A DNA stretch of 64,000 nucleotides from Elusimicrobia bacterium RIFOXYD2_FULL_34_15 (GTDB lineage Bacteria; Elusimicrobiota; UBA8919). The DNA lies in the NCBI GenBank assembly GCA_001800605.1, contig MGVS01000097.1, forward strand, positions 12,694-76,693, given 5' to 3'. This document shows positions 33,049 to 61,108 of this stretch, piece by piece. Position numbers and translations under genes: made by a program. Within the stretch, counting starts at the first letter, position 1; each line of letters starts with the position of its first letter. The notes beneath the pieces are model-generated. The model did no database searches. It saw only the letters and a program-made list of their open reading frames with translations, and was not told the DNA's origin.

Positions 33049-33174
33049 AACATTTGGCAAAGCTTACGCTTTGCTGCTACATATTTCAGAACTCCCTCAT
33101 TTCTATGAACTACGAACTCTTTATTTGCATTTTCCACCTCCCTCTCTCTCGAAGAGACCCGTTTATACGGGACT

Positions 33175-33345: not shown

Positions 33346-33370
33346 ATTCTCTATTTTGTTAATTTTTATA

Positions 33371-34096
33371 TCACTTTATATTTAACAATATTAACACTAA
33401 CACTTCTGAAATTTCGTTTATCGCACCTAAAGTATCACCGGTAATACCGTTTATTTTCTTTTTAACATATTTTGTAAATATATATGAGAATACTGAAATA
33501 AACAGAAATATTATAATACCTTTAAATTGAAAAACAAAGGTAGTTATTAAAAATGTAATTATTCCTGATATAACAAAATCTTTTTTTGAAATATTACTTA
33601 AAAAGTAATTTCCCAAACCGGTTTCCTTTGCCGGTTTTGATATTCCCATTGATAAAACCATAGCCCATCTTCCAAGAACCGGAAACAAAATTAAAGATGA
33701 ATTGAACAAAGCAGTATCAATATTATTTAATAAAACAAATTTTGAAAGTATTACCAATGCAATACCAATAACTCCCATAGTACCGATATGACTATCATTC
33801 ATAACTTCTAGTATTTCATCTTTATTTTTTCCGGCATATAAACCGTCAAGCGAATCTGCTAGTCCGTCTAAATGCAAACCACCGTTAATTATTATTGTTA
33901 CGGTAATAATCAATAAATCAACTACTATTTTATAAAACACAAATGAGCAACCAAATTTAATTAGAACAAGAATTCCGCCGATAAAAAGTCCGACAACCGG
34001 GAAAAAAGGCAATATATGTTTTATCCCCTGCCTGTATTTTTTTGGCACAGGTATTATTGTCAGAAAACTAATAGCTGAAAATAAATAATTAATCAT
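33371..34096 (-). CDS. cobS: Adenosylcobinamide-GDP ribazoletransferase (cobalamin synthase)
   Basis: 241 aa polytopic membrane protein. Begins MINYLFSAISFLTIIPVP with the conserved DGLAD...GDxxG motif. Confidence 0.88.
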   Translation of the reverse strand: MINYLFSAISFLTIIPVPKKYRQGIKHILPFFPVVGLFIGGILVLIKFGCSFVFYKIVVDLLIITVTIIINGGLHLDGLADSLDGLYAGKNKDEILEVMNDSHIGTMGVIGIALVILSKFVLLNNIDTALFNSSLILFPVLGRWAMVLSMGISKPAKETGLGNYFLSNISKKDFVISGIITFLITTFVFQFKGIIIFLFISVFSYIFTKYVKKKINGITGDTLGAINEISEVLVLILLNIK

Positions 34097-39800: not shown

Positions 39801-39958
39801 AACCCGCCACTGATGCGCCTCCGCCAGTTGGCGGATGGCGGACCGTTGCATGCCCACCTACGCTTTCTTGTCCGCCAAAGTTTCAGTGGCGGAAGTGGCG
39901 GAAGTTGTGGGGCGGGTTAACCCGCCACTGATGCGTTGGCGGGTTAATTTTTGGCAAA
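39801..39958. repeat. Cluster of GC-rich palindromic elements (cccgccactgatgcg..., ccgccaaagtttcagtggcggaagtggcgg, cccgccactgatgcgttggcggg)
   Basis: Multiple CCGCC...GGCGG hairpins. Shares a family with 40177-40231 and 1323-1397. Confidence 0.7.
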
Positions 39959-44723: not shown

Positions 44724-45557
44724 CTATTCTTCTTTAGCCAAGTTATCGTTTATTGTACTTCCATCTTTTTTCTTCCATTCAGCAAGTCCATTTGCGTTTC
44801 TACCCATTACGATAGCTGCTGCCGTTGATGGACTGGAAAAAAGATAATCTTGTGTAAAAATCCAATCTTTTATAATACCTTCAGATGTTAGTTTATTCCT
44901 TTTATTTTTAAAACTAATTGTTATAGAAGGAACTTCTGTAGTAGCAATTTTAGAATTCTTGAGAACTACGAATCCCTCGGAAGTAATCATTCCTTCTGCA
45001 TGTGCCCCGCGAGTAGCTGAAATATAATATCGATCTTGATTTGAATGATTACTCTCAATAAGTTTTTCAAATATTTTATATCCCATTGTACCAACAAGTA
45101 ATTGTAAATTTTTTGAAAATTCTAACATTACAGCTTGATCAGCCTCAGAAATTGCAGGTTCAGTAGGAGTATTATCATTAATTATTTTATATCTTTTAGC
45201 ATCTTTTGCTTGAATATAAAGTCTATATTCAAGAAATTTTACATGTGCTTTATTTAGATTCTCATCTTTGCTAATAAAAGCTAATGCTTCTGACCAAAAA
45301 TCTTTTTCTTGATGTTGGAAAATTCTTTTTAATACTTCTTCAGATTCACCAATATAAACACATTCATTATCATTTTCATCACGACCTATTAAAAAATAAA
45401 TACCTGCTTTTTTCAATTCAGACCTATCTGATGCATTTTTTAATTTATTTTTTGGAATTCTATATCCTTTTCCAGTCCAATTTAATATCTCACAAGCAAT
45501 AATACCATCTGGTGTACCATCAATTAAAAATAGAGATATTGCTTTTCCACTTGCCAT
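44724..45557 (-). CDS. GIY-YIG nuclease-domain protein with a DUF4357-like C-terminal region
   Basis: ...AGIYFLIGRDE...VYIGESEEVLKRIFQH is GIY-YIG-like. AGGAGG lies 7 nt before the ATG at 45557. The track start at 45617 reads through the palindromic element ccaaccccgggttgg. Confidence 0.7.
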   Translation of the reverse strand: MASGKAISLFLIDGTPDGIIACEILNWTGKGYRIPKNKLKNASDRSELKKAGIYFLIGRDENDNECVYIGESEEVLKRIFQHQEKDFWSEALAFISKDENLNKAHVKFLEYRLYIQAKDAKRYKIINDNTPTEPAISEADQAVMLEFSKNLQLLVGTMGYKIFEKLIESNHSNQDRYYISATRGAHAEGMITSEGFVVLKNSKIATTEVPSITISFKNKRNKLTSEGIIKDWIFTQDYLFSSPSTAAAIVMGRNANGLAEWKKKDGSTINDNLAKEE

Positions 45558-45584
45558 TGTAATTCCTCCTAATATCAACTTCCG

Positions 45585-45685
45585 CCAAGTTCCAACCCCG
45601 GGTTGGAACTTTGGCAACTTGTCTGCCGCCTATGGCGAGCCTAGCCCCTTTGGGGCGGGAGCCTATTAAGCAGTCGAAGGATTAT
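45585..45685. repeat. Palindrome ccaaccccgggttgg plus direct repeat copy 2 (ctgccgcctatggcgagcctagcccctttggggcgggagcc...cagtcgaaggatt, 45623-45685)
   Basis: See 40283-40340. Confidence 0.75.
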
Positions 45686-46645: not shown

Positions 46646-46900
46646 TTAAGTTTTTATCAATACCAGTTTTTTACTTCGTGGCAAACTTTTTATTTCACTT
46701 TCACGTTTCAATGCAGATGATCTGTTGGGATGTTTTTCTGAATAGACACATTTAACAGGTATTTTATTAGATGTGTATTTTGCTCCGTTGCCTTTGTTAT
46801 GTTCGTTAATTCTTCTATTTAAATCAGTTGTAATTCCTGTATAGAGTGTATTATTGGAACATTTTAAGATATAGACAAGGTAGGGTGTGGCTTTTGCCAT
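46646..46900 (-). CDS. Small GIY-YIG nuclease superfamily protein (UPF0213 / YhbQ-like)
   Basis: 84 aa, begins YLVYILKCSNNTLYTGITTDLNRRINEHN. Confidence 0.8.
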   Translation of the reverse strand: MAKATPYLVYILKCSNNTLYTGITTDLNRRINEHNKGNGAKYTSNKIPVKCVYSEKHPNRSSALKRESEIKSLPRSKKLVLIKT

Positions 46901-46942: not shown

Positions 46943-47013
46943 GAGCGGGTGATGGGAATCGAACCCACGTTTCAAGCTTGGGAAGCTTGCATACTACCAT
47001 TGTACTACACCCG
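46943..47013 (-). tRNA. tRNA-Gly (anticodon CCC)
   Basis: Minus strand: GCGGGTGTAGTACAATGGTAGTATGCAAGCTTCCCAAGCTTGAAACGTGGGTTCGATTCCCATCACCCGCT. 7-bp acceptor stem, anticodon loop TTCCCAA, T-loop GGTTCGATTCC. Confidence 0.85.
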
Positions 47014-47073
47014 CAGAAATTCAATTAAAAATTAAAAATTAGAAATTCAAAATTGTGGTTGTTTTTTATTTAA

Positions 47074-47106
47074 TCCCCGCCAGCCACTAAGTCATTGGCG
47101 GGTAAA
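47074..47106. repeat. GC-rich palindromic element (cccgccagccactaagtcattggcggg)
   Basis: Stem CCCGCCA / TGGCGGG, family of 690-712. Confidence 0.65.
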
Positions 47107-47116
47107 CAATAATTCA

Positions 47117-48019
47117 TTATTTTGCAAATTCGGTTATGTCCTGGAATATCATACCGCTGCCTGCAAGTTTGCCGAATTTATTTTTTATTAATATCGTACC
47201 GTAACCTATCAGAATTCGTTTATCTGTTTTAACAACTAAAAACACTTCCTGCCTGTTTTGTATTTGCTGGTTCATAAAAGCATCAAAAAGTATAGACGGT
47301 ACTTCCGGTTGTCTTATGAATACATCTTTTGCATATTTACCGACTGCCGATGATTTGTTAATTCCCAATATATTCTGCGCCTGAGAATTGAATACGGTTA
47401 TTTTTCCTTCTTTATCTGTAGCTATAAAACCGCCGGGTATACTTTCAATTATATTTTCCACATATTCTTTTGAATATATCATCTCCTGATATAAATCCGA
47501 ATTTTCAAGAGTCATGGCGATGTTGCTTGCAACAGTAATAAGAAATTCTTTATCTAATTCGTCAAAATCAGTTTTTTTATTTATAATTTCAATTACACCG
47601 TAATTTCTATTTTTATGTACGATAGGTACACAAAGTATATTCTTTGCAGTGATTCCGGCAAGAGCATCAACTTCCTTTGAATAATAAGAATTTTTCTGAG
47701 GATCGTTCAATATTTCCGCCTTACCTATTTGAGCTATCCAACCGATCAGTCCGAACCCTAATCTGTGCTTAAGACGCTCCTCTCTTTTAATTATTCCTTC
47801 TTTATGCTTACCTATACTTGTCAAACATGTCAGTTGTTTCTGTTCAAGATCTGATGTATAAATTGTCGCAGTTTCAACTTCAAGCGTAGATAAAACAACC
47901 GTTAATACTTTTCCTGATGATTCTTTAAGTGTCAACCTAAAGCTCAAAAAGAAAGCAATTTCATGAAGTGCTTTTAAATGCTCAATTTCCTTTTTCTTTA
48001 CTGCCGGTATGTATTCCAT
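47117..48019 (-). CDS. GAF-PAS sensor protein without a recognisable output domain
   Basis: 300 aa. GAF-like N-terminal region and a PAS-like C-terminal part (...GGFIATDKEGKITVFNSQAQNILG...). Confidence 0.6.
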   Translation of the reverse strand: MEYIPAVKKKEIEHLKALHEIAFFLSFRLTLKESSGKVLTVVLSTLEVETATIYTSDLEQKQLTCLTSIGKHKEGIIKREERLKHRLGFGLIGWIAQIGKAEILNDPQKNSYYSKEVDALAGITAKNILCVPIVHKNRNYGVIEIINKKTDFDELDKEFLITVASNIAMTLENSDLYQEMIYSKEYVENIIESIPGGFIATDKEGKITVFNSQAQNILGINKSSAVGKYAKDVFIRQPEVPSILFDAFMNQQIQNRQEVFLVVKTDKRILIGYGTILIKNKFGKLAGSGMIFQDITEFAK

Positions 48020-48167: not shown

Positions 48168-49610
48168 TTATTTGGTTTTTACAATAGTTTTTAGAAATTT
48201 TATTGCTTCTTCCCTTGTTTTTACTTCTTTAGTTACTTGCGATTCTTCAAGTTTTTTAAGTAATTGTCCGACTTCAGGACCTTGTTCAATTTTTAATATT
48301 TTCATTATTTCATTACCATTTAAAAGTTTTACAGGAAGTATCTTTTCTTTTTTATAAAAATACTTATTCAGCAATTTATTGCCGACTATTCTGTGAAGTG
48401 TCCGTATATTACTTGGTGGATACGTATAAGCATCGCAGATTGATAAAACAATCTGATCTATACCATCTTCACCTAAATCCTTAAAAAATCTCCATACAGC
48501 TTTATCGGTTACTTCTTTTGCACTTGTAAGGTTTCCTAAACGCATATGGTTCTGGATAACTTTTTTTATATATTTTATTTCGTCATTTGAAAACCTTAAC
48601 CTTTTCCCTATTTTATCAATCATTTTGCTTCCCACATCTTCATGCCCGAAAAATCTCAATCTATCACCAATTTTTTCGGCAGATCCGGGTTTTCCTATAT
48701 CGTGTAAAAGCACCGCGTATTTCAAAATTGTTTTCCTTTTTACTGTTCTTGAAATATTACCGTCAAGATGCATCATTATTTTTTTATTGAATCTTGGAAA
48801 AATGTTTTTAAAATTATTTTTATAAAACTTCTCGAGCACTTTCAATGAATCAAAACAATGCCCCAGAAGCCCCATTTTGGGGTAATAACACCTTGCTGTA
48901 TGCCTGGTCGGAATTAACTCCGGAAATATATAATCCAATAATTTCGAATTATGCATTTTCAATATAATGGAATGACTATCTGATAATCCCATTATTAGAT
49001 TTAATTCGTAACTTATTCTTTCTACAGATACTTTTTTTATATATTTCGCATATTTTTTTATAAATTTTTCTGTTTTTGGTTCAATTTTAAAATTTAATTG
49101 CCCGGCAAACCTGTACGCTCTTAAAACTCTTAACGGATCATCAACAAAGTTTTTTTCTTCAATACATCTTATAACCTTGTTCTTTATATCAACTCGTCCA
49201 TCATAAGGATCAATAAGATCGGTAACGGGTAACGCGTAATCCCGAGAAGTCGGGACAGGCTGGGTAATGGGTATCGCAATGGCATTGATAGTAAAATCAC
49301 GTCTTGTTAAATCTTCGATAATATTTTTGCCCTGCATTTTTGAGAAATCGAAGGTTTTGCCATTAATAATCACACGGTAAATTTTGTTGAAGTCGTCTAA
49401 AATTATGAATTTTCCTTTTACTTTTTCGGCAAATGTTTGTGCAACTTTCTGCGTATTGCCGTCAGTAACAAAATCCATATCTTCCGAGATTTTATTAAAA
49501 TACAAATCCCTGATATAGCCCCCGACAATCCAGATATTTTCTTTAGTTTTTAAGTATTTTAATATATCAATATTATTCATAAATAACCTTGCACTATCAC
49601 CCCACCCCAC
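48168..49610 (-). CDS. cca: CCA-adding enzyme / tRNA nucleotidyltransferase (Pol-beta head plus HD domain) carrying an in-frame repeat-element insertion
   Basis: 480 aa. GGYIRD...D.D, the RRDFTINAIA motif and the HD domain LLHDIGK. An extra 19-aa loop (IPITQPVPTSRDYALPVTD) lies between INAIA and LIDPYDG. Confidence 0.85.
   Translation of the reverse strand: MGWGDSARLFMNNIDILKYLKTKENIWIVGGYIRDLYFNKISEDMDFVTDGNTQKVAQTFAEKVKGKFIILDDFNKIYRVIINGKTFDFSKMQGKNIIEDLTRRDFTINAIAIPITQPVPTSRDYALPVTDLIDPYDGRVDIKNKVIRCIEEKNFVDDPLRVLRAYRFAGQLNFKIEPKTEKFIKKYAKYIKKVSVERISYELNLIMGLSDSHSIILKMHNSKLLDYIFPELIPTRHTARCYYPKMGLLGHCFDSLKVLEKFYKNNFKNIFPRFNKKIMMHLDGNISRTVKRKTILKYAVLLHDIGKPGSAEKIGDRLRFFGHEDVGSKMIDKIGKRLRFSNDEIKYIKKVIQNHMRLGNLTSAKEVTDKAVWRFFKDLGEDGIDQIVLSICDAYTYPPSNIRTLHRIVGNKLLNKYFYKKEKILPVKLLNGNEIMKILKIEQGPEVGQLLKKLEESQVTKEVKTREEAIKFLKTIVKTK
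49218..49274. repeat. RPE-like palindromic element inserted in frame within cca (inverse orientation)
   Basis: The reverse complement, atacccattACCCAGCCTGTCCCGActtcTCGGGATTACgCGTTACccgttacc, matches the intergenic copies at 22150-22215 and 36385-36440. It encodes residues 113-131 of Cca. Confidence 0.85.
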
Positions 49611-49616
49611 AATCGC

Positions 49617-49682
49617 ACAATCTTCCGCCCCAAAGGGGCGAGACCCTGACTACCGTTAGGCAGGCTCGCCCATAGGGCGGGC
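49617..49682. repeat. Direct repeat B (ccgccccaaaggggcgagaccctgactaccgttaggcaggctcgcccatagggcgggc)
   Basis: See 48063-48125. Confidence 0.8.
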
Positions 49683-49689
49683 ACTATTT

Positions 49690-50460
49690 TTAAGGCATAA
49701 CCGGTATCGATGAAATTAATTTTTGTGTATACGGATTTCCCGGATTATTTATTATTTCTTCGGATTTGCCATATTCAACTACCTCTCCGTTTTTCATTAT
49801 AGCAATATTATCTGAAATTGCAGCCAGTAAATTTAAGTCATGCAAAATTATTATATATGACAATTTTAGTTTATCTTTTAAATCAAAGAATATATTCATT
49901 ATTTGCGCCTGAATTGATATATCTAGCGAAGACACCGGTTCGTCCGCTATAATTAATTCGGGTTCAGATGCCAAAGCACGCGCAATTGCTATCCTCTGTC
50001 TCTGACCCCCTGAAAACTGATGAGGATATTTTTGTAGTGAATCTTCAGGTAAACCGACAGATTTTAGAATTTCTATTGCCCGTCCAGCTCTATCATTTTT
50101 AACATCCATTGCTTCGTAAACGGTTGTTCCGACAGAAAGTTTAGGATTAAGTGATGAAAATGGATCCTGAAAAATCATCTGAACTTTTCTGGCAAGTTCA
50201 CGCCGTGAATATTCAGAAATATTTTTTTTATCAATAATTATTTCACCGGAATCAAAATTAATTAAACCGGAAATTATTTTTGCAAATGTAGTCTTTCCGC
50301 TTCCGGATTCGCCGGCGATTCCCAATATTTGCCCTCTTTCTAAATCCAAAGATACATTTTTAAGCACGTCTATATAAGCATTTTCCATAGAAAAAATACT
50401 TTTTTCAATTTTAAATTTTTTATTAACATTAACCGCTTTTAATATTAAATCATTCGACAT
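49690..50460 (-). CDS. oppF: Oligopeptide ABC transporter ATP-binding protein OppF
   Basis: 256 aa. Walker A GESGSGKTT and FSGGQRQRIAIARAL signature. Confidence 0.85.
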   Translation of the reverse strand: MSNDLILKAVNVNKKFKIEKSIFSMENAYIDVLKNVSLDLERGQILGIAGESGSGKTTFAKIISGLINFDSGEIIIDKKNISEYSRRELARKVQMIFQDPFSSLNPKLSVGTTVYEAMDVKNDRAGRAIEILKSVGLPEDSLQKYPHQFSGGQRQRIAIARALASEPELIIADEPVSSLDISIQAQIMNIFFDLKDKLKLSYIIILHDLNLLAAISDNIAIMKNGEVVEYGKSEEIINNPGNPYTQKLISSIPVMP

Positions 50461-51184
50461 ACAATTTATTTCCTATATACACAGAACTATAAAGTTTTTT
50501 CATATCTTTTGTACTAAGTTGTATGCAAATATGATTTATTGTATCGTGATATTCTCTATTTTTTGAAGTATCGTGAATTATTAAAAAATCATCAAAATGT
50601 ATGGCATAATTACCTAAAGCACCGACCATTAATCGCTCAGGCGAATTTTCCACTGGAATTTCCTTTGTAATGTCTTCGTATGTCCATTTTGGTTTAACAG
50701 AAGTCGGATTTTTTTCTTTTGCCAATATTTTTAAAACTTTTCTGCTAATTTCGCTTTTTAAAAAGTTTTGAACAGTTTGATCCGTAATGTTAATATCAGA
50801 AACCACTTTACCATTTTTTACAAATTTTAATTTTTTCATCTTTGTATCAAATATCAGTTTTGTTCTTAGAATACTTAAATTTCCCCAGAGCAATCTATTT
50901 GCTTTGAGCAGGTTTTTATTATTTTCAATTAATATTTTTTGGTCCTCTTGTAATTGTGGTAATGTATCCAGTTTAATTGCTTCGTAATCACCTACAACGG
51001 ATTGACTCAATGCAATTTGATACTTTTTCTGATTCATCAGCATTAAAAGTTGTTTTTTTAAATCAGCCGTTTCATCATCAATGTCTTTAGTATAATCCGG
51101 AAGTTTGACATTAATAAATATTGAAATAGCTAAAATCATCAATATAAATATTCTTAATAATATTTTAAAAAATTTAATAAACAT
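50450..51184 (-). CDS. L,D-transpeptidase-like paralog with a divergent catalytic motif (NHICIQL in place of SHGCIRL)
   Basis: 244 aa. TM anchor plus coiled coil plus YkuD-like C-terminal domain. Same architecture as the adjacent LDT. 11-nt overlaps on both sides. Confidence 0.55.
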   Translation of the reverse strand: MFIKFFKILLRIFILMILAISIFINVKLPDYTKDIDDETADLKKQLLMLMNQKKYQIALSQSVVGDYEAIKLDTLPQLQEDQKILIENNKNLLKANRLLWGNLSILRTKLIFDTKMKKLKFVKNGKVVSDINITDQTVQNFLKSEISRKVLKILAKEKNPTSVKPKWTYEDITKEIPVENSPERLMVGALGNYAIHFDDFLIIHDTSKNREYHDTINHICIQLSTKDMKKLYSSVYIGNKLYVE

Positions 51185-51956
51185 AAATAAGTGTTCTATT
51201 AACCTTTGCAGATTTATTAATATATTCTAAATCTTCTGCTCCTAAACGAATACAGCCGTGAGAAACCGCTCTTCCTAACAATTCTTCTTTCTGTGTACCG
51301 TGTATTTTATATCCAAATCCTAAATCTAAAGCATATTTACCTAATTCACCCTCTACTTTCCGTTCAAGAGCATCCGGTAAAGGTATTTCTTTATTTTCTT
51401 CAATAAAAGCCCAATCCGGTTTAAACCAGATTGGATTTTCGATCCTGCTTTTTATTAAAAAAACTCCGCGAGGCGTTACAAACTCCCACTTCCTTCCGGT
51501 TTTTTTATCAACTAAAAGTCCACCCTTACCTACTGAACATTTACATTCTCTTAATATTTTCCCTTTCTGCTTAAGATAAAGTTTGTTTTGTCTTGTATCA
51601 ACTAAAACATATGGTTCATTACTAATAATATCGTTTATACTGGATGATATAAGCAAATTAGCATTTACAAGTTTTATATTTTTTTCAATTAGGTCTTTAT
51701 TTTTTTCAATTAACAAAATTTGACTATTCTTCAAAATAAACGATTGCCTGGAAATAGAATTTTTATCGCTTTCCAGCTGTTTTATTTCGGCAGAGATATT
51801 CAACATTTCATTTTTAATAATTTCTGATTCGTTTTTTGCGTCAATAAAATTATATACATTAATAGCCGTATGTATGAAAACCATTATAAAAACTAACCAA
51901 AATATATTTTTCAATAAATTACTAATTGATTTTTTCATGATATTTATCCTGAGCAA
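51174..51956 (-). CDS. L,D-transpeptidase (YkuD family)
   Basis: 260 aa. Catalytic ...HGTQ...SHGCIRL motif. TM anchor and coiled-coil N-terminal region. Confidence 0.8.
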   Translation of the reverse strand: MLRINIMKKSISNLLKNIFWLVFIMVFIHTAINVYNFIDAKNESEIIKNEMLNISAEIKQLESDKNSISRQSFILKNSQILLIEKNKDLIEKNIKLVNANLLISSSINDIISNEPYVLVDTRQNKLYLKQKGKILRECKCSVGKGGLLVDKKTGRKWEFVTPRGVFLIKSRIENPIWFKPDWAFIEENKEIPLPDALERKVEGELGKYALDLGFGYKIHGTQKEELLGRAVSHGCIRLGAEDLEYINKSAKVNRTLIYVY

Positions 51957-52080
51957 CCTGCCCTGAGCACATTCGACTCCGCTCAGTGCAAGCTTGTCGA
52001 AGGACCAAAGGGAGTCGAAGGATTACCTCGTTACTCCCGCCACTAGGTCTTCGGCGGGCAAGCATTACTCGTTACTACCT
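51957..52080. repeat. Composite GC-rich repeat (tcctgagcaacctgccctgagc...gtcgaagga...gagtcgaaggatta...cccgccactaggtcttcggcggg...ttactcgttac)
   Basis: Contains the AGTCGAAGGAT module, also at the ends of the 40283 and 45623 repeats. Also carries a CCCGCCA/TGGCGGG hairpin and a ttactcgttac tail. Confidence 0.65.
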
Positions 52081-52887
52081 CTAAATTACATTAAATTTCT
52101 TAACTTTTTGTCCTGCCTTAGGAATTACTGATATAAGTGCTTTTGTATATGGATGCTTTGGTATTTTCATTATCTCGGAAGTTTTCCCTTCTTCAACAAT
52201 TTCGCCATTATACATTACCGCAATCCTGCTGCAAATATCATAAACAATGCCAAAATTATGAGTAATAAAAATCATGGTTAAATCGAATTCTTTTATAAGT
52301 TTTTTTAAAAGCTCCAGAATTTCTTTTTGTATCGTTACATCAAGTGCAGTAGTGGGTTCATCTGCAATAAGAATTTCGGGACGTGATGCAAGTGCCTGGG
52401 CAATCATAATTCGCTGTCTCATTCCGCCGGAAAGCTGATGCGGATAAGAATTTTTTATTCTATCAAAATTACCCAACTGAACCATTTCCAAAAGTTCCTT
52501 TATTTTATTATCGGATGAATCCTCATTATGTACTTTTAAAGTTTCTCTTAATTGTTCGGATATTTTTATTACAGGATTTAAAGATGATAACGGATCCTGA
52601 AAAATAACGCTTATTTTTCCACCGCGAAGGTTTTGTAATTCTTTTTTATTTAATCGAAATATATTCTGGTTATGAAATAATATTTCTCCGCTAGAAATTT
52701 TAGCCTCTTTAGGTAAAATATCCAATATCGAAAGCCCAAGAGTCGATTTACCGCTTCCGGATTCGCCTATTATACCGAGCGAATCATTTCTATTAAGCGA
52801 AACTGAAACATTTTTCAATGCAGGTATTATTTTCTTACCAACTTGATATTCAACAGATAGATTTTTAATTTCTAAGATTGTGTCCAT
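52081..52887 (-). CDS. oppD: Oligopeptide ABC transporter ATP-binding protein OppD
   Basis: 268 aa. Walker A GESGSGKST and LSGGMRQRIMIAQAL signature. Confidence 0.85.
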   Translation of the reverse strand: MDTILEIKNLSVEYQVGKKIIPALKNVSVSLNRNDSLGIIGESGSGKSTLGLSILDILPKEAKISSGEILFHNQNIFRLNKKELQNLRGGKISVIFQDPLSSLNPVIKISEQLRETLKVHNEDSSDNKIKELLEMVQLGNFDRIKNSYPHQLSGGMRQRIMIAQALASRPEILIADEPTTALDVTIQKEILELLKKLIKEFDLTMIFITHNFGIVYDICSRIAVMYNGEIVEEGKTSEIMKIPKHPYTKALISVIPKAGQKVKKFNVI

Positions 52888-52889
52888 AT

Positions 52890-53720
52890 TTAGTTCGTTC
52901 TAGGGTCAAAAACATCGCGCAATCCTTCACCTAAAAGATTCCAGCCAAGAACCGTTATTAGAATTGCAAGTCCCGGAAAAAGTGAAAGCCACCACGCAAT
53001 ATGGATATAATCCTTACCGCTTGTCAGAATATTTCCCCATGAAGGTATCGGTGGTTGAACGCCTAATCCCAAAAAAGAAAGCCCCGATTCTGTAAGTATT
53101 GCAGCACCCACTCCTAAAATACTTGATACAAGAATAGGCGATATAACGTTTGGTAAAATATGAACAAAAATAATTCTTCTTTTTCTTAATCCCAATCCCC
53201 GGGCGGCAGTAATAAAATCCCTCTCTTTTATAGTAAGTGTTTCACCTCGTACTAAACGCGCAAGACCTGTCCAGGAGGTAATACCTATAACAATCATAAC
53301 ATTGTAGATATTCGGCTCTAAAAATGCTATTACCATTAAAATTAAAAAGAATGACGGAAAACAAAGCATAATATCCACAAAACGCATAATAATAGAATCC
53401 ACTTTCCCGCCGAAATATCCGGAAATAAGCCCTAAAAAGGTGCCGATAATCAATGAAATTGATACCGCGATAATACCAACCGAAATAGAAATACGTGAAC
53501 CGTAAATCATCCTTGAAAATACATCCCTGCCGATTTCATCAGTTCCTAAAAAATGATTTTTCGAAGGTGCTTGCAATCTTTCCAGAATATTACCTTCAAG
53601 TGGATTATGCATAGTAACTACGGGCGCAAAAATTGCTATAATAACCAGAACAATTATTATAACTGCTCCTGCTATTGCCAGTTTATTTCTCAACAATTTT
53701 TCCAAATATATTTTTAACAT
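52890..53720 (-). CDS. oppC: Oligopeptide ABC transporter permease OppC
   Basis: 276 aa. BPD_transp_1 permease with an EAA-like loop. Confidence 0.85.
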   Translation of the reverse strand: MLKIYLEKLLRNKLAIAGAVIIIVLVIIAIFAPVVTMHNPLEGNILERLQAPSKNHFLGTDEIGRDVFSRMIYGSRISISVGIIAVSISLIIGTFLGLISGYFGGKVDSIIMRFVDIMLCFPSFFLILMVIAFLEPNIYNVMIVIGITSWTGLARLVRGETLTIKERDFITAARGLGLRKRRIIFVHILPNVISPILVSSILGVGAAILTESGLSFLGLGVQPPIPSWGNILTSGKDYIHIAWWLSLFPGLAILITVLGWNLLGEGLRDVFDPRTN

Positions 53721-53728
53721 TTCTTTAA

Positions 53729-53765
53729 CTGTATCCTGTATCCTGTATCCTGTATTCTGTGTACT
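53729..53765. repeat. Tandem 7-mer repeats (CTGTATC x3, then CTGTATT, CTGTGTA) at the oppB-oppC junction
   Basis: On the coding strand this reads GGATACAG x3, ending 9 nt before the oppC ATG. Confidence 0.7.
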
Positions 53766-53768
53766 GCC

Positions 53769-54740
53769 TTATTTGTATCTTATCCTTGGGTCTACATAAG
53801 CATATGCTATATCTGCCAATAAATTTCCTAAAAGTGTCAAAATAGCTACTATTGTACCGACACACATGATAACAGGATAATCTCTTGACATTATCGCTTC
53901 GTAACCAAGCCGGCCCATCCCAGGCCATGCAAATATTGTTTCAAAAATAAAAGAACCGCCAATTAAATCGGGTAGAGTAAGCCCGACAATTGTAACTACC
54001 GGAATAAGTGCATTTTTCAAAGCATGCTTGAATATTACCGTGTTTTCCGGTAGACCTTTTGCTCTGGCAGTTCTTATATAATCCTGATGCAAGACTTCAA
54101 GCATAGATGATTTTGTGTATCTTGAAAGTCCCGCAAGACCTGTGAACGCAGATATAAGAACCGGAAGAACCAGATGCCTTAAGATATCAAGAAGTTTTCC
54201 AATAATTGTAAGTTCATCAAAATTTATTGAACGAAATCCGGAAATAGGAAGCCATCCTAATTGAACACCGAATAAAATCATTAGAAGTATAGCAAGCCAA
54301 AACGTGGGAATCGAAAACCCTAAAAATACGGTAACAGTTGTTATTTTGTCAAAAAGAGTATCTTTTTTTACGGCAGAAAATACACCAATTGGAATTGCAA
54401 GTGCAAAAATAAGAATTATTGAACAAAAATTTAAAAGGAGCGTTACGGGCAACCTTTCTGCTATTTTTTTTATAACCGGCCTGTCATCTTTGAAAGATTT
54501 TCCGAAATCAAATTTTGCCAGCCGTTTAAGCCACATCCCGTATTGAACATAAAACGGTTTATCCAACCCATAAAGAGTTACTAACCTTTGCTTTGCTTCG
54601 GTTGTAATTTTCTGGTTCATATCTGTTAGAACATCAGTTGGTTTTCCGGGAGAAAGATGCATAACAAGAAATGTAATTACAGTTATACCGAAAATAACCG
54701 GAATTGTAAGTAACAATCGTCTAAAAATATAAGTTTTCAT
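53769..54740 (-). CDS. oppB: Oligopeptide ABC transporter permease OppB
   Basis: 323 aa. DppB/OppB-type permease. Confidence 0.85.
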
Positions 54741-54798
54741 TTTAAAGGCAGATCACAGTATACAGTACTCAGGATTCAGCTTTATGAATTATAAAAAG

Positions 54799-54842
54799 CT
54801 GTATGCTGTTTTCTGTATTCTGTATCCTGTATCCTGTGTACT
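54799..54842. repeat. Tandem 7-mer repeats (CTGTATG/CTGTTTT/CTGTATT/CTGTATC x2/CTGTGTA) at the oppA-oppB junction, with a partial inverse copy at 54758-54777
   Basis: Forms a potential long hairpin in the oppA-oppB intercistronic region. Confidence 0.65.
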
Positions 54843-56445
54843 ATTTGCTCATTTCGTATTTTCTTTGTTCATACGGCACGTACCATTCGCGAAAATTCCA
54901 GCCTACGCCTGCGGGTGCAACTTCCGGCCCGGTAAATTTTTTATGGATTACAGGAAGTGCATCCGGAACATACAAAAATGTATACGGTTGTTCATCAGCA
55001 AGTATTTTATGTATTCGCTGGTATATCTTCTGTCTCTTCTTTTCATCAAATATTCTTCGTCCATCTTCAAGAAGCTTATCTACTTCTTTATTTTCATAAT
55101 TTACAAAATTATATTGTCCTTCTTTTTTTTGAGACGAATGCCAAAGTGCATATTGGTCAGGATCCCTTGAGAGGTTCCATCCCAAAATAACCGCATCAAA
55201 ATTCTTTTTATCCACATATTGATGAATAAATGTTGACCACTCCAAAATCCTGATATTAACTTTTATTCCTACTTTTTTAAGATGTTCCTGAATTAATTCA
55301 CAGGCAACGGACCTTGATTTATTCCCCTGATTGGTTATTATTGTAAACTCAAACTTTTTACCGTCTTTATCAAGCCAGCCGTCTTTATTATAATCACTCC
55401 ATCCGTATTTTTTAAATATATTTTTTGCTTTTTCTATATTATATTCATAATCTTTTACTTCAGGATTATATGCCCATGACGTCGGAGGATAAGGACCTGT
55501 TGCAGGCAAACCATAACCAAGCAGAATACCATCTACAATTTCTTTTTTGTTTATTGAATATGCAATTGCCTGTCTGATTTCTTTTTCATTAAAAAGCTGA
55601 TTTAAAAGATTGTAACCAAGATATGTAAAACCAAAAGTAGGATATTTGAACTTACTGTAGTTTTTAAAATAACTTTTATATGCGTTATATTGGTCAGGCG
55701 TTAAATTCATTGAATCAATAGTTTCATTGCGTAACTCCAGAAACTGGACTGACTGGTCGGGTATAATTCGATAGATGTATTTCGAAAGATAAGGCCTGCC
55801 TTCAAAATAATCAGAATTTGCTTCAAGAACTATTTTTTCGTCTGTTTTCCATTCAACAAATTTATAATATCCGGTACCGATAGGTTTTCTGTTTGCAGGA
55901 TGTGTATTAAAATCTCCTTTTTCAAATATATGTTTGGGTATTATTCCCATTCCCCATGAAATAAGCCCCGGTGAAAAAGGTTCCTTATAAACAATTCTTA
56001 TTTTATACGGATTAATAATCTCAAATTTCTTAACAATTTCGAAATCGGACGAATACGGTGTTTTTACTTTCGGGTCAACCAGTTTTTTATAAGTGAACTC
56101 TACATCTTCTGCTGTAAATGATTTGCCGTCGTGCCATTTAACATTTTTTTTTAAATTAAATATTATAATCTTTCCGTCTTCAGATACACTCCACGATTCC
56201 GCCAAATCTCCAATTATTTTTATATTTTTATCATATTTTACAAGCCCGTTGAAAATAAGATTATTTATATCTCCTGAAGCTGAATCGGAAGCTAAAATAG
56301 GATTAAGATATGTTGCATCCCCAATTGACGATTCTACATAATAATCACCGTATTTATCATCTTTTTCCGCTGATTTTACAGGTTCTGATTTTTTACATCC
56401 TATCAAATTTAAAGAAAAAAAAAGCAATAAAATTATTTTTATCAT
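54841..56445 (-). CDS. oppA: Oligopeptide-binding lipoprotein OppA (SBP family 5)
   Basis: 534 aa. Lipobox LIGC at the N-terminus. Family 5 solute-binding fold. Confidence 0.85.
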   Translation of the reverse strand: MIKIILLLFFSLNLIGCKKSEPVKSAEKDDKYGDYYVESSIGDATYLNPILASDSASGDINNLIFNGLVKYDKNIKIIGDLAESWSVSEDGKIIIFNLKKNVKWHDGKSFTAEDVEFTYKKLVDPKVKTPYSSDFEIVKKFEIINPYKIRIVYKEPFSPGLISWGMGIIPKHIFEKGDFNTHPANRKPIGTGYYKFVEWKTDEKIVLEANSDYFEGRPYLSKYIYRIIPDQSVQFLELRNETIDSMNLTPDQYNAYKSYFKNYSKFKYPTFGFTYLGYNLLNQLFNEKEIRQAIAYSINKKEIVDGILLGYGLPATGPYPPTSWAYNPEVKDYEYNIEKAKNIFKKYGWSDYNKDGWLDKDGKKFEFTIITNQGNKSRSVACELIQEHLKKVGIKVNIRILEWSTFIHQYVDKKNFDAVILGWNLSRDPDQYALWHSSQKKEGQYNFVNYENKEVDKLLEDGRRIFDEKKRQKIYQRIHKILADEQPYTFLYVPDALPVIHKKFTGPEVAPAGVGWNFREWYVPYEQRKYEMSK

Positions 56446-56488
56446 TATTATATTTTTTAATCAGTTTTCATCGTTTTTTAAAATCTGA

Positions 56489-57145
56489 CTAAATCGTCTT
56501 TCCCTTTTTCTCAGAATTGCGGTGTCTTAGATACTCAATTACACCGGGTATAACCGAAAGTATGATTATAGCTAAAATGACAAGGGTAAAGTTACGCTTA
56601 ACTACAGGAATATTACCAAAATAGTATCCGCCAAATAGAAAAATTGCAATCCAGGAAATACCACCCACAATGTTATAAACCAAAAATCTAAAATAAGTCA
56701 TTGCACCTATGCCTGCAACGAAAGGTGCAAATGTGCGAATTATCGGTATAAATCTTGCTATTATTATGGTTTTCCCGCCATATTTTTCATAGAATTTATG
56801 TGTTCGCTCAAGATGTTCTTTTTTGAAAAATTTATTATTTTCATAATGAAAAACTTTTGGACCTAAATAATTTCCAATCCAGTAATTTACAGTATCTCCT
56901 GCTATTGCAGCCACACTTAGTAAACCAAATAAAATCCAAGGATTAAAAGCTCCGGTTGCCGCAAATGCACCGGCTGCAAATAGGAGCGAATCGCCGGGCA
57001 AAAACGGCAGTATAACCAAACCAGTCTCACAAAATATTATTAAAAACAATATTAAATATGTCCATAAACCAAAATTCTGTATTATCTGACTAAGATACTT
57101 GTCTAAATGTAAAAAAACATTGATAAAACTTTTAATAATTTCCAT
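56489..57145 (-). CDS. DedA / VTT-domain membrane protein
   Basis: 218 aa polytopic protein. DedA family. Confidence 0.8.
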
Positions 57146-57188
57146 GTATTACTTTCTCCTTAAAATAAGAATTTTTTAAAGCAGTGAA

Positions 57189-58517
57189 TTATTTTAATAT
57201 GAGCGTTGTTGTTTTCTGAGGGTTATAGAATTTTTCAGCAGCTGTTTTTATATCGGCAATTGTAACTGCATCGATATCATCCAAATATTTACTATCGTAT
57301 TCATAACCCTTCCCCATAACTTCCCAAAAGCCGTTCCACCATCCCTGCCTTTGAATTGTCCTATGGTCCATTAAAAAGGTTCCTTTTAAATATACCTTTG
57401 CATTTTTAAGTTCTTCTTCTGAAACCTCTGAAAACTTTTTCATCTCTTCATCAAACGCTTTTTCTACTATTTCAAGATTTTCCTTTGACATTCCTGCATA
57501 AAAAACAAAATCGCTTATTTCTTTTCTTGTCGGATAAAACGAATCGGCTTCATACACCAATCCATTTTGCTCACGCAAAGCATTAAATAATCTCGAACCC
57601 ATTCCACCGCCAACCACGGTATTTATAACTTTAAAAACCACATATTCATTTTGGCTGATATCCGGTGCAAGAAAACCGGTAAAAATATATGCCTGATGGA
57701 ATTTACTTTGAGATATTTCTCTAACCGGTTTATTTTGAGTGATTTTATAGGTTACAGTTCCTAGAAACACATCTTCTGCACCTATAATCTTTATATTTTT
57801 GAAATATTTTTCGACAATTTGTTTTGCTTTATCAAAATTAATATCCCCATTAATACTTAATATCATATTCTCCGGTTTAAAATTTTTTCTATAAATATCC
57901 GATATCTGAGAAATGGTGAGCGATGAAACACTGGATTCGTAACCACTGATAGGCCTATGATACGGATGTTTTTTAAAAATCAACTCATTAAATTGGTCAT
58001 AGGAAATAGAAAAAATATGATCTATCTTTGATTTAATACCGGCGATTGTCCTTACTTTTTCTTTTTCAAACTCATTTTCAGGAAACGTCGGATTATTTAC
58101 AATATCAGCAAAAATATCAAAAGCTGTATCAATATTTTCAGAAGGTACAATTAGCGAAACTTCGGAATAATTATTTGAACAACCCGCTGAAATTGTTGCA
58201 CCGATAGATTCTGTTTCTTCTGCTATCTTTTCCGAATCACGATTGACAGTACCTTTTATCAATATCTGAGTCATCAAACTTGTAACACCTGCTTCTTCGT
58301 CTTTTTCGTTTATGTTACCGCCTTTTATAAACAGATTTACGCTTACTAATCCTACTTTCTCTTTTTCCTGATGAATAAATGTAAATCCATTCTCAAACTG
58401 TACTCTCTTGGTTTCGCAATATAAATTACCAACAGCAAACACTAAAAGGCTTATAGCAACTAAAAACCTTAAAACCTGCGTACTGTGTACTGTATACTGT
58501 ATACTGTTTTTATTCAT
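57189..58517 (-). CDS. M16-family peptidase, non-catalytic partner (no HxxEH motif)
   Basis: 442 aa. Insulinase-like fold. The ATG overlaps the upstream gene's TGA in an ATGA arrangement. The N-terminal coding region contains the 7-mer tandem repeat at 58478-58507. Confidence 0.75.
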   Translation of the reverse strand: MNKNSIQYTVHSTQVLRFLVAISLLVFAVGNLYCETKRVQFENGFTFIHQEKEKVGLVSVNLFIKGGNINEKDEEAGVTSLMTQILIKGTVNRDSEKIAEETESIGATISAGCSNNYSEVSLIVPSENIDTAFDIFADIVNNPTFPENEFEKEKVRTIAGIKSKIDHIFSISYDQFNELIFKKHPYHRPISGYESSVSSLTISQISDIYRKNFKPENMILSINGDINFDKAKQIVEKYFKNIKIIGAEDVFLGTVTYKITQNKPVREISQSKFHQAYIFTGFLAPDISQNEYVVFKVINTVVGGGMGSRLFNALREQNGLVYEADSFYPTRKEISDFVFYAGMSKENLEIVEKAFDEEMKKFSEVSEEELKNAKVYLKGTFLMDHRTIQRQGWWNGFWEVMGKGYEYDSKYLDDIDAVTIADIKTAAEKFYNPQKTTTLILK

Positions 58518-59875
58518 GGCGCCATTATTACCGTTGGAATATTAGGAAATACTAAATATTTAGAAATAACTTTTTTTATATCTTTTATTTCTACTTCCTT
58601 AATCTTTTTTACATAATTATCAGATATTTTTTCAATACCCAATACCGCATAAAAACCCAATTCCCCTGCTTTACCATCCGATGTCTGTGCTTCTAAAAGC
58701 TTATCTCTTATTAAAAGCACTTTTGCTCTATTAAGTTCCTCTTCAGTGACTTGATTTATTGAAAGGTCCAATAATTCAAGTAAAATGCTATTTGATAAAT
58801 TGGATACCTTTTCCGGATTACATTCTCCGTATATATGAAATAACCCTGGACCTCTTTGAGTAGAAAATGAACAAGATATATTTAATGCAAGTTTTGTTTT
58901 TTCAACAAGCTTTTTATTTAAGCGTGAAGCCCTGCCCGCTCCCAAAATGTATGATGCAACATCCAAAGAATATTGTTCACTGCTATCTGCCGGTGCTGCC
59001 GTAAAACCCATCAATATATATCCCTGAGAAACATCTCTTTTAATTATTTTTTTTGCCAAATCTTTTTTATTTTTCGGTTTTAACATTACCGATTTATTTT
59101 TTTCTTTTTTAACTTTTGGAAGCGCTCCAAAATTACTCTCAATTAGATCCATCATTTCTTTTTTAGCAAAATTTCCCGTGATTACTACAAAAATATTTCC
59201 GGATACATAAAACTTATTATGAAATGCAAGCAAATCTTCCCTTTTTAATTTTGAAACGGTCTCTTCAGTGCCTATTACCCGTCTGGCGTATGGTGACTGC
59301 TGATACACTTGTTCATAAAATTCGTCAAAAAGCTGAGATTGCGGATTATCATCTTTTCTCTTTACCTCTTCCAAGACCACCTGGCGTTCTTTTTCAATTT
59401 CTGTTTCCGGAAACGCAGGATTTAATACCACATCCCCTAAAATTTCAAATGCTTTTAAACAGTAACTGCTTGGTACAAGCGTATAGAAAAAAGTATAATC
59501 TTTAGAAGTCGCTGCATTAATTACACCACCCAATCTTTCTATTTCAGGCGCCACGTCTTTTTGCCCTCTTGTTTTTGTTCCTTTGAAAATTGTATGTTCT
59601 ATGTAATGTGAAATTCCGGAATTTATAGCATCCTCGTCAACCGAACCTACTGCAACCCATATTTGAATCGCTGTCAACAAAGAGGACGGATCGTTATCAA
59701 AAATTACACTTACACCATTTTTAAGTTTTGTATTTGATGCATTGGCAAAGGCAGGCAAAGCAAAGATAGGTATTAATGCTATAGTAGAAAACAAATATAG
59801 TAATTTTTTCTTTAAAATCATTTTTTTGGAATTTACCCCGTGTGAAAATGTAGTTACATAATGCTTATAAAACAT
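58514..59875 (-). CDS. M16-family zinc peptidase (HxxEH active site)
   Basis: 453 aa. HYIEHTIFKGT is the inverted zincin motif. Signal-peptide-like N-terminus. An alternative start is at 59821 (MILKKK). Confidence 0.85.
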   Translation of the reverse strand: MFYKHYVTTFSHGVNSKKMILKKKLLYLFSTIALIPIFALPAFANASNTKLKNGVSVIFDNDPSSLLTAIQIWVAVGSVDEDAINSGISHYIEHTIFKGTKTRGQKDVAPEIERLGGVINAATSKDYTFFYTLVPSSYCLKAFEILGDVVLNPAFPETEIEKERQVVLEEVKRKDDNPQSQLFDEFYEQVYQQSPYARRVIGTEETVSKLKREDLLAFHNKFYVSGNIFVVITGNFAKKEMMDLIESNFGALPKVKKEKNKSVMLKPKNKKDLAKKIIKRDVSQGYILMGFTAAPADSSEQYSLDVASYILGAGRASRLNKKLVEKTKLALNISCSFSTQRGPGLFHIYGECNPEKVSNLSNSILLELLDLSINQVTEEELNRAKVLLIRDKLLEAQTSDGKAGELGFYAVLGIEKISDNYVKKIKEVEIKDIKKVISKYLVFPNIPTVIMAP

Positions 59876-59911
59876 TTGTTAATTTCTATAAAAATTTATT
59901 TACAACATTTT

Positions 59912-60352
59912 CTAACGGGCTTTCTTTGCTTTCTTTACTTTTGATTTTTTCGTTTTTGTTGTTTTTTTCTTTGTCTTAACTGATTTTTTTGTAACTGCTT
60001 TTTTACCTTTCATTTCAGCATCAATAATATCAACTGCTTTTTCTGCTTTTGATTTTTCAGCAGCTATAAAAACAACAGTATCATTCTTTTTACATGAAAA
60101 TTCTTTTTCTATTGCTGATTTTTCTTTACTTGTTATACCGTAATGAGGAAGCTCATCGGTTGAAATAAAACCGGCAATTTTTGCACTTTTTGAAATCTTT
60201 TTCTGTAATTCATCAGATAATTTTATATCTTTTACCAGTAATCCTGCTTTTCCTTCTACTTTGATTCCTAACACTATACTGCCAGAAGATATAAGATTTT
60301 TTATTATATTCGATTCTGTATTTTTAAATATTTTGGTAATATCTTTTATCAT
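59912..60352 (-). CDS. Hypothetical protein with a lysine-rich histone H1-like C-terminal tail
   Basis: About 146 aa. The C-terminus is KKAVTKKSVKTKKKTTKTKKSKVKKAKKAR. The track start at 60376 reads into the repeat, so the likely start is MIKDITK at 60352. Confidence 0.55.
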   Translation of the reverse strand: MIKDITKIFKNTESNIIKNLISSGSIVLGIKVEGKAGLLVKDIKLSDELQKKISKSAKIAGFISTDELPHYGITSKEKSAIEKEFSCKKNDTVVFIAAEKSKAEKAVDIIDAEMKGKKAVTKKSVKTKKKTTKTKKSKVKKAKKAR

Positions 60353-60364
60353 CTTTCCCCCCGA

Positions 60365-60550
60365 AGGTCTCGCCAACGCTTTAGTGGTGGACCGAAGGTT
60401 CGCTTATCCCCCTGCGAACCGTAGGCCTCGCCAATGGTTTAGTGGCGGGCTCATTTAAATAATCTGTGTAATCTTGCACTCGAAGTTCGTACCCACTGGA
60501 ACGAACAAGACTGCAATTCCGATTTATCGGAATAATACCTCTTCATCTGC
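60365..60550. repeat. GC-rich palindromic element (60365-60455) followed by a composite element homologous to 660-845: ATCTGTGTAATC at 60462-60473, then TTCCGAT-TT-ATCGGAA and ATAATACCTCTT
   Basis: The inverted repeat covaries with the copy at 815-832 (TCCCGAT-TT-ATCGGGA). Confidence 0.7.
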
Positions 60551-61003: not shown

Positions 61004-61108
61004 CCACCACTAAGACTTTGGCGGACCCGCCTATGGTTCAGTGGCGGGCTACCCTTTTACCTTTTACTCGTTACTCCCGCCATAGGCGGGCAAGCATTAC
61101 CCATTACT
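61004..61108. repeat. GC-rich palindromic elements (ccaccactaagactttggcggacccgcctatggttcagtggcggg ... cccgccataggcgggc) with ttactcgttac / ttacccattac tails
   Basis: Family of 10520-10592, plus the ttacYcRttac module. Confidence 0.7.

Follow-up and report, generated by a model that had tools for sequence, protein, structure and literature searches.

In the genome of Elusimicrobia bacterium RIFOXYD2_FULL_34_15, a stretch of 64,000 nucleotides (nt) (contig MGVS01000097.1, positions 12,694 to 76,693 of the forward strand; hereafter, the window) contains two adjacent genes for L,D-transpeptidase (LDT)-like proteins that are located between oppD and oppF, the ATPase genes of an oligopeptide importer. 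The first of these genes, LDT1, encodes a canonical member of the YkuD family; the second one, LDT2, encodes its divergent paralog, the window's representative of a family that we denote LDT'. The reading that we favor, and consider reasonably probable, is that LDT1 and LDT' make up a cassette of stalked, periplasmic proteins that is found phylum-wide and, in one lineage, was inserted into an opp operon with a nutritional role, and that this cassette and the importer do not comprise a murein-peptide module. The conserved unit is the LDT1-LDT' gene pair, not the linkage of this pair to opp.

The LDT1-LDT' pair and its genomic neighborhoods

Open reading frames (ORFs) were called in 97 fetched loci and scored with hidden Markov models (HMMs) of the LDT1 and LDT' families, with a score of at least 300 bits taken as membership in the LDT1 family. 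In 78 of 78 loci that contain an LDT1-family gene, an LDT' gene lies directly downstream on the same strand; these loci represent 68 unique pairs. The wider sample of pairs was obtained from a metagenome scan with a broad LDT' alignment; a scan of genome contigs with an alignment of close-clade LDT' sequences recovered only 7 close relatives, the peptide patterns derived from that alignment being too specific.

The pair is embedded between oppD and oppF in the window and in only 8 other unique loci (L001; L002, the same as L003 and L011; L006; L007; L008, the same as L018 and L019; L009; L010; and L012). At the 60 other unique pair loci, 34 of which include at least 600 nt of flanking sequence on both sides, no ORF resembling the Opp proteins or ABC ATPases of the window was detected at E 1e-15. 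According to the gene tables of the public assemblies, the pair adjoins argR and arginine biosynthesis genes in L004/L005 and ZapA and MgsA-type genes in L013, lies between SSB and sensor kinase genes in L014, precedes a radical-SAM gene in L015, and follows an AI-2E transporter gene in L016 and a response regulator gene in L017. Because pairs without opp genes occur in 60 unique loci and at least six neighborhoods, the position within opp is a lineage-specific insertion. Thus, the opp-LDT linkage that was emphasized in a preliminary description of this DNA is retained in a group of related genomes but is missing at most of the pair loci.

Because the LDT' proteins of the opp-embedded group are 56-90% identical to one another and only 16-26% identical to all other LDT' (which show 30-95% identity among themselves), this group represents one deep branch. 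Each of the 8 related loci with an opp-embedded pair contains the core gene string oppB-oppC-oppD-LDT1-LDT'-oppF-cca; the two genes for M16 peptidases, oppA, and a downstream GAF gene are also present wherever the contig or locus extends far enough, with the M16 genes syntenic in L001, L002, L006, L007, and L010. This distribution is most simply explained by one event in which a cassette that already existed was inserted into an oppABCDF operon.

The LDT' family, as defined by profile search, includes 304 clusters at 90% identity, and an HMMER scan of 1.84 billion representative sequences yielded 29 LDT' at E <= 1e-30 and 51 at E <= 1e-10. All homologs with a named source come from Elusimicrobia/Elusimicrobiota metagenome-assembled genomes; most members have no Pfam assignment and are usually labeled 'hypothetical protein' by their sources. 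Judging from these searches, LDT' is a small family, all named members of which belong to Elusimicrobia. The analysis provides a name and a fold for this family of at least 304 clusters, mostly 'hypothetical' in public records. In the literature, coverage of which by journal was incomplete, we found no description of LDTs in Elusimicrobia, of an LDT within an opp operon, or of paired, stalked YkuD proteins. The fold and chemistry of the LDT pair are already known; the LDT' family and the obligatory pairing, on helical stalks, of a canonical protein with one lacking the motif glycine appear to be undescribed. L,D-transpeptidases influence how the cell wall is cross-linked, how the outer membrane is tethered, and how well beta-lactams are tolerated, and canonical and glycine-less YkuD domains on matched stalks, always encoded next to each other across a phylum, would be a new organizational form of this enzyme class.

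Distant LDT1-like genes, scoring 130-230 bits with the LDT1 HMM, were observed in L050, L053, L057, L058, L069, L086, and L095-L097. In these loci, no LDT' partner was detected, even where downstream sequence is present (for example, L069 and L096); such genes may represent an unpaired ancestral form or relatives from outside Elusimicrobia.

Architecture and fold of the two proteins

LDT1 matches the Pfam YkuD family (PF03734) well above the cut-off of 23.4 bits (65.3 bits, E 1.2e-17), whereas LDT2 falls below it (19.0 bits, E 2e-3). The relationship between the two proteins is readily detectable by direct comparison: BLASTP aligns them with 25% identity over 240 residues (E 9e-18), and the alignment of the LDT1 and LDT' family profiles (98.9% probability, E 1.5e-17) extends over 213 columns that include the stalk, with the catalytic His and Cys in register. 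By these measures, LDT1 and LDT2 are paralogs over their full length, stalk included.

Both proteins were modeled with AlphaFold2. The model of LDT2, built with the 73-sequence LDT' alignment, has a predicted local distance difference test (pLDDT) score of 89 and consists of a helix (residues 2-106) followed by a beta-rich domain (108-243); the LDT1 model (pLDDT 93.6) likewise consists of a helix (3-110) and a domain. In a Foldseek fold search, for which the LDT2 model alone was used, the 50 best PDB matches listed are all of the YkuD type, with a probability of 1.00, and nearly all are named L,D-transpeptidases, the top ones being Ldtfm (1zat), LdtMt2 (5du7), and YkuD (1y7m). The LDT2 domain, as modeled, adopts the YkuD fold, which, together with the sequence comparisons, bears out the proposal of the preliminary description that the two genes are tandem L,D-transpeptidase paralogs. 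Comparison of the LDT' profile with PDB sequences reached a single solved LDT, 4lzh, with a marginal E of 0.003. Weak Pfam similarities between LDT1 and DivIC, HEPN-like_int, and BBS1 (E 0.03-0.06) were dismissed as products of the low-complexity helix.

Both proteins start with a short basic tail and one hydrophobic helix that resembles a signal-anchor, followed by the helical stalk and the C-terminal YkuD domain. The stalk, measured from the anchor to the domain in 45 pairs, is 86 +/- 3 residues long in LDT1 and 81 +/- 2 residues in LDT', and its length is nearly constant although the sequence of the LDT1 stalk is little conserved. The hydrophobic period of the stalks is 3.5-3.6 residues (marginal against shuffled sequences, p 0.03 and 0.07), which, along with the long modeled helix, is compatible with a coiled coil without proving it. 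The plan of transmembrane anchor, coiled coil, and YkuD domain previously suggested for both proteins is accordingly recovered with respect to the anchor, the helix of about 105 residues, and the domain, but the coiled coil itself is only marginally indicated. Because both LDTs open with a basic tail and a hydrophobic signal-anchor, the YkuD domains are likely extracytoplasmic, that is, periplasmic; the charges flanking the anchors of LDT1 and LDT2 fit the N-in orientation.

The catalytic fold and the spacing between the catalytic His and Cys are the same as in Enterococcus faecium Ldtfm, Mycobacterium tuberculosis LdtMt2, and Bacillus subtilis YkuD/LdtBs, and LDT1 has the full SHGCxR motif. 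In Ldtfm and LdtMt2, too, a membrane anchor at the N-terminus precedes a spacer. In the known LDTs, however, the intervening part consists of Ig-like, LysM, or peptidoglycan-binding domains, whereas in LDT1 and LDT', it is a single helix of about 80-86 residues. A further difference from the known membrane-anchored LDTs of the YkuD family is that LDT1 and LDT', which are diverged paralogs, are encoded by an obligatory pair of adjacent genes; LDT' also lacks two residues of the extended catalytic motif, Gly and Arg, and scores below the Pfam threshold.

Catalytic sites and the probable activity of LDT'

LDT1 contains the motif SHGCIRL (Cys235 encoded at 51254-51252), and its catalytic residues are His219 and Ser232-His233-Gly234-Cys235-Ile-Arg237. 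In the 60-sequence alignment of the LDT1 family, H219, G220, S232, H233, G234, C235, and R237 are invariant. The corresponding motif of LDT2 is NHICIQL (Cys220 encoded at 50527-50525), with His204-Asp205, His213, and Asn217-His218-Ile219-Cys220-Ile221-Gln222 as the key residues; the Cys is not preceded by Gly, and position Cys+2 is not Arg. These departures are common to all 73 diverse LDT' sequences aligned (about 20% identity), in which the Cys is preceded by V, I, L, A, Y, or T, but never by G, and position Cys+2 is occupied mostly by G or Q, rarely by E, N, or C, and never by R. The consensus of the family in this region is LILHGPP-x5-HEAFPH[VIL]C[AL]GL, and the residues invariant in all 73 sequences are R97, L98, L99, E157, P177, R184, G191, H204, H213, H218, C220, and G238. 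Both motifs, thus, had been read correctly in the preliminary description, including the retention of Cys and His and the loss of Gly in the second protein, a loss that extends to the entire LDT' family.

The minimal motif of the YkuD domain is H(S/G/D)x14-19C (PMC4599014). This pattern is present in both proteins (H219-G220...C235 in LDT1, H204-D205...C220 in LDT2), whereas the extended motif (S/T)HGC-h-(R/N) is found in LDT1 (SHGCIR) but not in LDT2 (NHICIQ). The loss, in all LDT', of the HGC glycine and of the Arg after the Cys, both of which are invariant in the LDT1 family, is what would be expected if LDT' were a non-catalytic pseudoenzyme that serves, via its stalk, as a structural or regulatory partner of LDT1. 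So is the invariance of R97-L98-L99 in the stalk of LDT' only, which suggests an interaction surface, and the limited similarity to other YkuD domains, with only 8 of the 73 LDT' members attaining E 0.01 against Pfam YkuD. We nevertheless regard this possibility as unlikely. His204, His218, and Cys220 are invariant in the 73 sequences, as is the additional His213, the pattern of a working site; the minimal motif is intact; and the oxyanion hole of the YkuD fold is built from backbone amides (PMC4599014), so that a different side chain in this position is not necessarily fatal.

Because three His and the Cys are invariant at about 20% overall identity, the site of LDT' appears to be working but re-specialized. 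LDT' is most likely an active enzyme with an altered substrate or reaction specificity, as far as residue conservation can tell, and a dead scaffold is less likely. A potential model is provided by Csd6 and Pgp2 of Helicobacter and Campylobacter, YkuD-fold L,D-carboxypeptidases in which the minimal motif is found in altered surroundings (PMC4599014); Csd6 demonstrates that a minimal-motif YkuD domain can be a hydrolase. However, Csd6 retains Gly before the Cys (Lys174-Gly175-Cys176), contains an NTF2-like domain, and is a homodimer, with neither a membrane stalk nor a paired paralog. Should LDT' indeed be active, the fact that the HGC glycine can be replaced would help in understanding YkuD catalysis and in designing inhibitors.

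LDT1 and LDT', an ancient full-length paralog, form, in this order, a two-gene cassette conserved across Elusimicrobia, and under the favored reading, their products would probably function as a heteromeric pair. Pairing of the stalks is proposed because of the strict adjacency of the genes, the frequent overlap of start and stop codons, the matched stalk lengths, and the invariant RLL in LDT'. The two stalks would associate as a parallel coiled coil, holding the catalytic sites side by side about 12 nm above the inner membrane (the number of stalk residues multiplied by about 0.15 nm per residue), that is, at the peptidoglycan layer. There, LDT1 would perform standard Cys-His chemistry on tetrapeptide stems, resulting in 3-3 cross-linking or in attachment of proteins to peptidoglycan, and LDT' might, for example, catalyze hydrolytic trimming of the L,D-carboxypeptidase type or bind a different acceptor. 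A bolder version, in which LDT1 and LDT' form an obligate heterodimer with the coiled coil acting as a periplasmic ruler of fixed length, LDT' catalyzes a reaction that is new for the YkuD fold, and the pair is responsible for an Elusimicrobia-specific form of wall maturation, seems to us doubtful. Candidate reactions of LDT' in that case would be formation of a different cross-link, attachment of outer-membrane proteins, or hydrolytic editing that feeds LDT1.

The opp operon and the insertion of the pair

All the genes between 47 kb and 60 kb of the window are on the minus strand. Listed in the direction of transcription, the gene cluster includes:

58514-59875, minus strand: M16 peptidase gene (Pfam Peptidase_M16 and M16_C)
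57189-58517, minus strand: M16 peptidase gene (Pfam Peptidase_M16 and M16_C)
56489-57145, minus strand: gene for a VTT/DedA-domain membrane protein (Pfam, E 8.5e-23)
54841-56445, minus strand: oppA, substrate-binding protein (Pfam SBP_bac_5, E 8.8e-96)
53769-54740, minus strand: oppB, permease (Pfam BPD_transp_1_N and BPD_transp_1)
52890-53720, minus strand: oppC, permease (Pfam OppC_N and BPD_transp_1)
52081-52887, minus strand: oppD, ATPase of 268 amino acids (aa) (Pfam ABC_tran and partial oligo_HPY)
51957-52080, minus strand: 124-nt spacer between the oppD stop and LDT1, 56% GC
51174-51956, minus strand: LDT1, canonical L,D-transpeptidase with predicted membrane anchor and stalk (Pfam YkuD, E 1.2e-17)
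51174-51184, minus strand: 11-nt overlap of LDT1 and LDT2, ATGTTTATTAA (LDT1 stop over LDT2 start)
50450-51184, minus strand: LDT2 (LDT'), divergent YkuD paralog (YkuD match below the threshold)
50450-50460, minus strand: 11-nt overlap of LDT2 and oppF, ATGTCGAATGA (LDT2 stop over oppF start)
49690-50460, minus strand: oppF, ATPase of 256 aa (Pfam ABC_tran, E 3.5e-37, and partial oligo_HPY)
48168-49610, minus strand: CCA-adding/poly(A) polymerase-type gene (domain assignment)
47117-48019, minus strand: GAF-PAS gene (domain assignment)

The order oppA-oppB-oppC-oppD-LDT1-LDT2-oppF, reported earlier along with the two 11-nt overlaps, is evident from the ORF list and the Pfam domains, and the overlaps are directly read from the sequence. 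The claim that the pair overlaps its neighbors within the operon applies, however, to the LDT2/oppF junction only: oppD and LDT1 do not overlap but are separated by the 124-nt spacer. The true start of LDT1 is probably ATG 51938, which is preceded by AGGA 10 nt upstream and gives a protein of 254 aa, as in the homologs, rather than TTG 51956. The form tATGTnnAnTrA is common to both overlaps; in each one, the ATG of the downstream gene falls within the codons for Tyr-Val in the C-terminal ...YV[YE]*, a segment homologous between the paralogs, which accounts for the likeness of the two overlaps. In the related opp-embedded loci, the LDT1/LDT2 overlap is retained in L006, L007, L009, and L010 and is replaced by a short gap in L001, L002, L008, and L012, whereas the geometry of the LDT'/oppF overlap is identical in 8 of 8; in L001 and L002, oppD and LDT1 overlap by 4 nt.

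The importer itself shows the hallmarks of the Opp/Dpp type, with a family-5 substrate-binding protein (SBP), two BPD_transp_1 permeases, and two ABC_tran/oligo_HPY ATPases encoded in a cluster. As in the Opp, Dpp, and App importers (E. coli OppABCDF with MppA; B. subtilis AppA), all five component types are represented, and their genes follow the canonical order; unlike in these importers, two foreign genes intervene between the ATPase genes. All NCBIfam equivalog matches of the Opp proteins are under the curated cut-offs, including the best matches of OppF, to dipeptide/oligopeptide ATPases, so that no named ortholog can be assigned. The closest solved chain to OppA is B. subtilis AppA (1xoc, E 3.4e-104), and E. 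coli-type OppA chains are far more distant (about 1e-25 to 1e-27); among the best 60 of the 76 matched chains, there is no MppA-named one. The NCBIfam model of E. coli OppA gives 98.7 bits with the window's OppA against a cut-off of 947, and by sequence, the window's protein is not closely related to E. coli MppA/OppA. The N-terminal segment of OppA ends in LIGC, which reads as a putative lipobox of a lipoprotein. Because the SBP is AppA-like and two M16 peptidase genes head the gene string, the opp cluster points to general uptake and scavenging of peptides.

The ATPases of the window lack the C-terminal Cys-rich [4Fe-4S] segment of E. coli DppD and DppF (PMC12136057). In a comparison with L001, L002, L007-L010, and L012, we observed that OppD of the window (268 aa) and of L006 does not contain the Cys-rich C-terminal tail ...GCKFNPRCPRKIEKC...RCFNP that is kept in six relatives; the spacing of the Cys residues in this tail resembles that of the four [4Fe-4S] ligands of E. 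coli DppD (Cys284, Cys290, Cys297, and Cys315), mutation of which disassembles the transporter (PMC12136057). OppF is short (256-262 aa) throughout the opp-embedded clade. Because the OppD tail is missing and OppF is short, neither ATPase of this genome would be expected to bind a [4Fe-4S] cluster.

Under the preliminary interpretation, the LDT pair and Opp constitute one module for uptake and remodeling of murein peptides, with the LDTs using or making the peptides carried by Opp or exchanging D-amino acids. The location of the pair between two genes of one transporter, the 11-nt LDT'/oppF overlap conserved in 9 genomes, and the 4-nt oppD/LDT1 overlap in two relatives all fit this scenario. 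So does the role of Opp with MppA as a known murein-tripeptide recycling route in E. coli (PMC10622912). The sole known precedent that ties the YkuD family to imported murein peptides is ElsL of Acinetobacter baumannii, a leaderless, cytoplasmic L,D-carboxypeptidase of this family that acts in cell-wall recycling (PMC8649774). LDT1 and LDT2, however, carry a signal-anchor and a stalk, which would place their YkuD domains away from the imported peptides, and the NCBIfam ElsL model gives only 27.4 bits with LDT1 (cut-off 270) and no match with LDT2, so that neither one is of the ElsL type. Furthermore, there is no opp gene near the pair in the 60 unique loci described above, the SBP is AppA-like rather than OppA/MppA-like, and the upstream M16 genes suggest general peptide scavenging. 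The established chemistry of LDTs is unfavorable as well: the product released by L,D-transpeptidation, D-Ala, is not an oligopeptide and hence not an Opp substrate, and stem peptides cannot be detached from glycan by a YkuD enzyme. A common murein-peptide module thus seems very unlikely to us.

An intermediate explanation is that the opp position provides regulatory coupling only, such that the mode of cross-linking is tuned to peptide availability via the opp promoter, without a common substrate. The stability of the position, with translational coupling, over a range of 56-90% LDT' identity is in line with this idea, as is the lack of an intrinsic terminator candidate at either LDT junction in a terminator scan that performed no better than on shuffled sequence. 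Promoter and terminator consensus scans of 49400-60500, however, identified no promoter or regulator and gave numbers no better than in shuffled sequence (66 promoters vs 49 +/- 6, and 6 terminators vs 5.6); in this AT-rich genome, such scans are uninformative on operon structure. Moreover, a structured repeat element is tolerated between oppD and LDT1 in this genome, and other, unrelated genes have been inserted in the same gene string. Only in the window, the VTT/DedA gene separates the M16 pair from oppA, whereas the relatives examined run from M16 straight to oppA; a PGA_cap (CapA-like) gene lies between oppA and oppB in L002 (4071-5009), two small ORFs (126 and 114 aa) occupy the same interval in L010 (4884-6461), and L012 (1976-3494) contains about 1.5 kb of extra DNA in an oppA-oppB gap similar to that of L010. 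The M16-opp gene string is an insertion hotspot that accepts unrelated genes. On this evidence, regulatory coupling appears rather improbable, if slightly less so than the shared module.

We therefore return to the reading favored at the outset. In one low-GC lineage of Elusimicrobia, the LDT cassette would have entered between oppD and oppF of an M16-M16-oppABCDF string and would since have been co-transcribed and translationally coupled with oppF, in a form of operon hitch-hiking that involves, at most, co-regulation. Co-transcription and translational coupling of the pair with oppF are probably real and long kept. If so, the placement within opp is a lineage-specific accident of genome organization and a caution against over-reading of gene neighborhoods as function. 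Several observations weigh against or qualify parts of this scenario. The insertion in opp is old and has remained stable, and retention of the LDT'/oppF overlap in all 9 genomes possibly reflects selection for co-expression with Opp. The predicted topology derives from the resemblance of the N-terminal helix to a signal-anchor, and the positive-inside bias across the families is weak, with the net charge of the N-flank exceeding that of the C-flank in only 32 of 60 LDT1 and 40 of 73 LDT' family sequences. The lengths of the two stalks, both nearly constant, vary too little for their covariation (r 0.20, p 0.19, 45 pairs) to bear on heterodimerization. Finally, the bulky residue that replaces Gly beside the oxyanion hole could still abolish catalysis by LDT'.

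The oppD-LDT1 spacer (51957-52080), which is missing from the relatives, stands out by its GC content (0.556 vs about 0.33 around it) and by the predicted stability of its RNA fold (-53.1 kcal/mol, z -2.5); a search of the spacer against Rfam gave no match. A hairpin repeat that is dispersed over the window, CCCGCC...GGCGGG, is represented in the spacer by one copy (52036-52058). Pattern matching for CCCGCC-(loop, often ACTGATACTYT)-GGCGGG found 7 copies in the window against 0 expected:

689-711: hairpin repeat copy
10541-10563: hairpin repeat copy
39921-39943: hairpin repeat copy
47076-47102: hairpin repeat copy
52036-52058: hairpin repeat copy, in the oppD-LDT1 spacer
61026-61048: hairpin repeat copy
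61076-61090: hairpin repeat copy

The repeat often adjoins related TCCGCC...GGCGGA hairpins, and the copies near 52036 and 61076 have longer flanks in common, CTCGTTACTCCCGCC...GGCGGGCAAGCATTAC. From its sequence, the element, which has no Rfam match, looks like a repetitive extragenic palindrome (REP) or a miniature inverted-repeat transposable element (MITE).

Every 2-kb bin of the window shows a negative GC skew, and the minus strand carries nearly all the long ORFs examined; the window is located on one replichore with a strong gene-strand bias. Because of this bias, co-directionality alone is weak evidence of an operon here. Just downstream of the conserved gene string, there is a 297-aa ORF (44724-45617, minus strand), and an 84-aa ORF (46646-46900, minus strand) is the positional counterpart of an 85-aa gene of L001 that is assigned to PF01541 (GIY-YIG) and comes after the GAF-PAS gene. 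In an Rfam scan of the whole window, we also identified a flavin mononucleotide (FMN) riboswitch (4423-4548, minus strand, 113 bits), a cobalamin riboswitch (33166-33393, minus strand, 62 bits), and a tRNA (46944-47014, minus strand).

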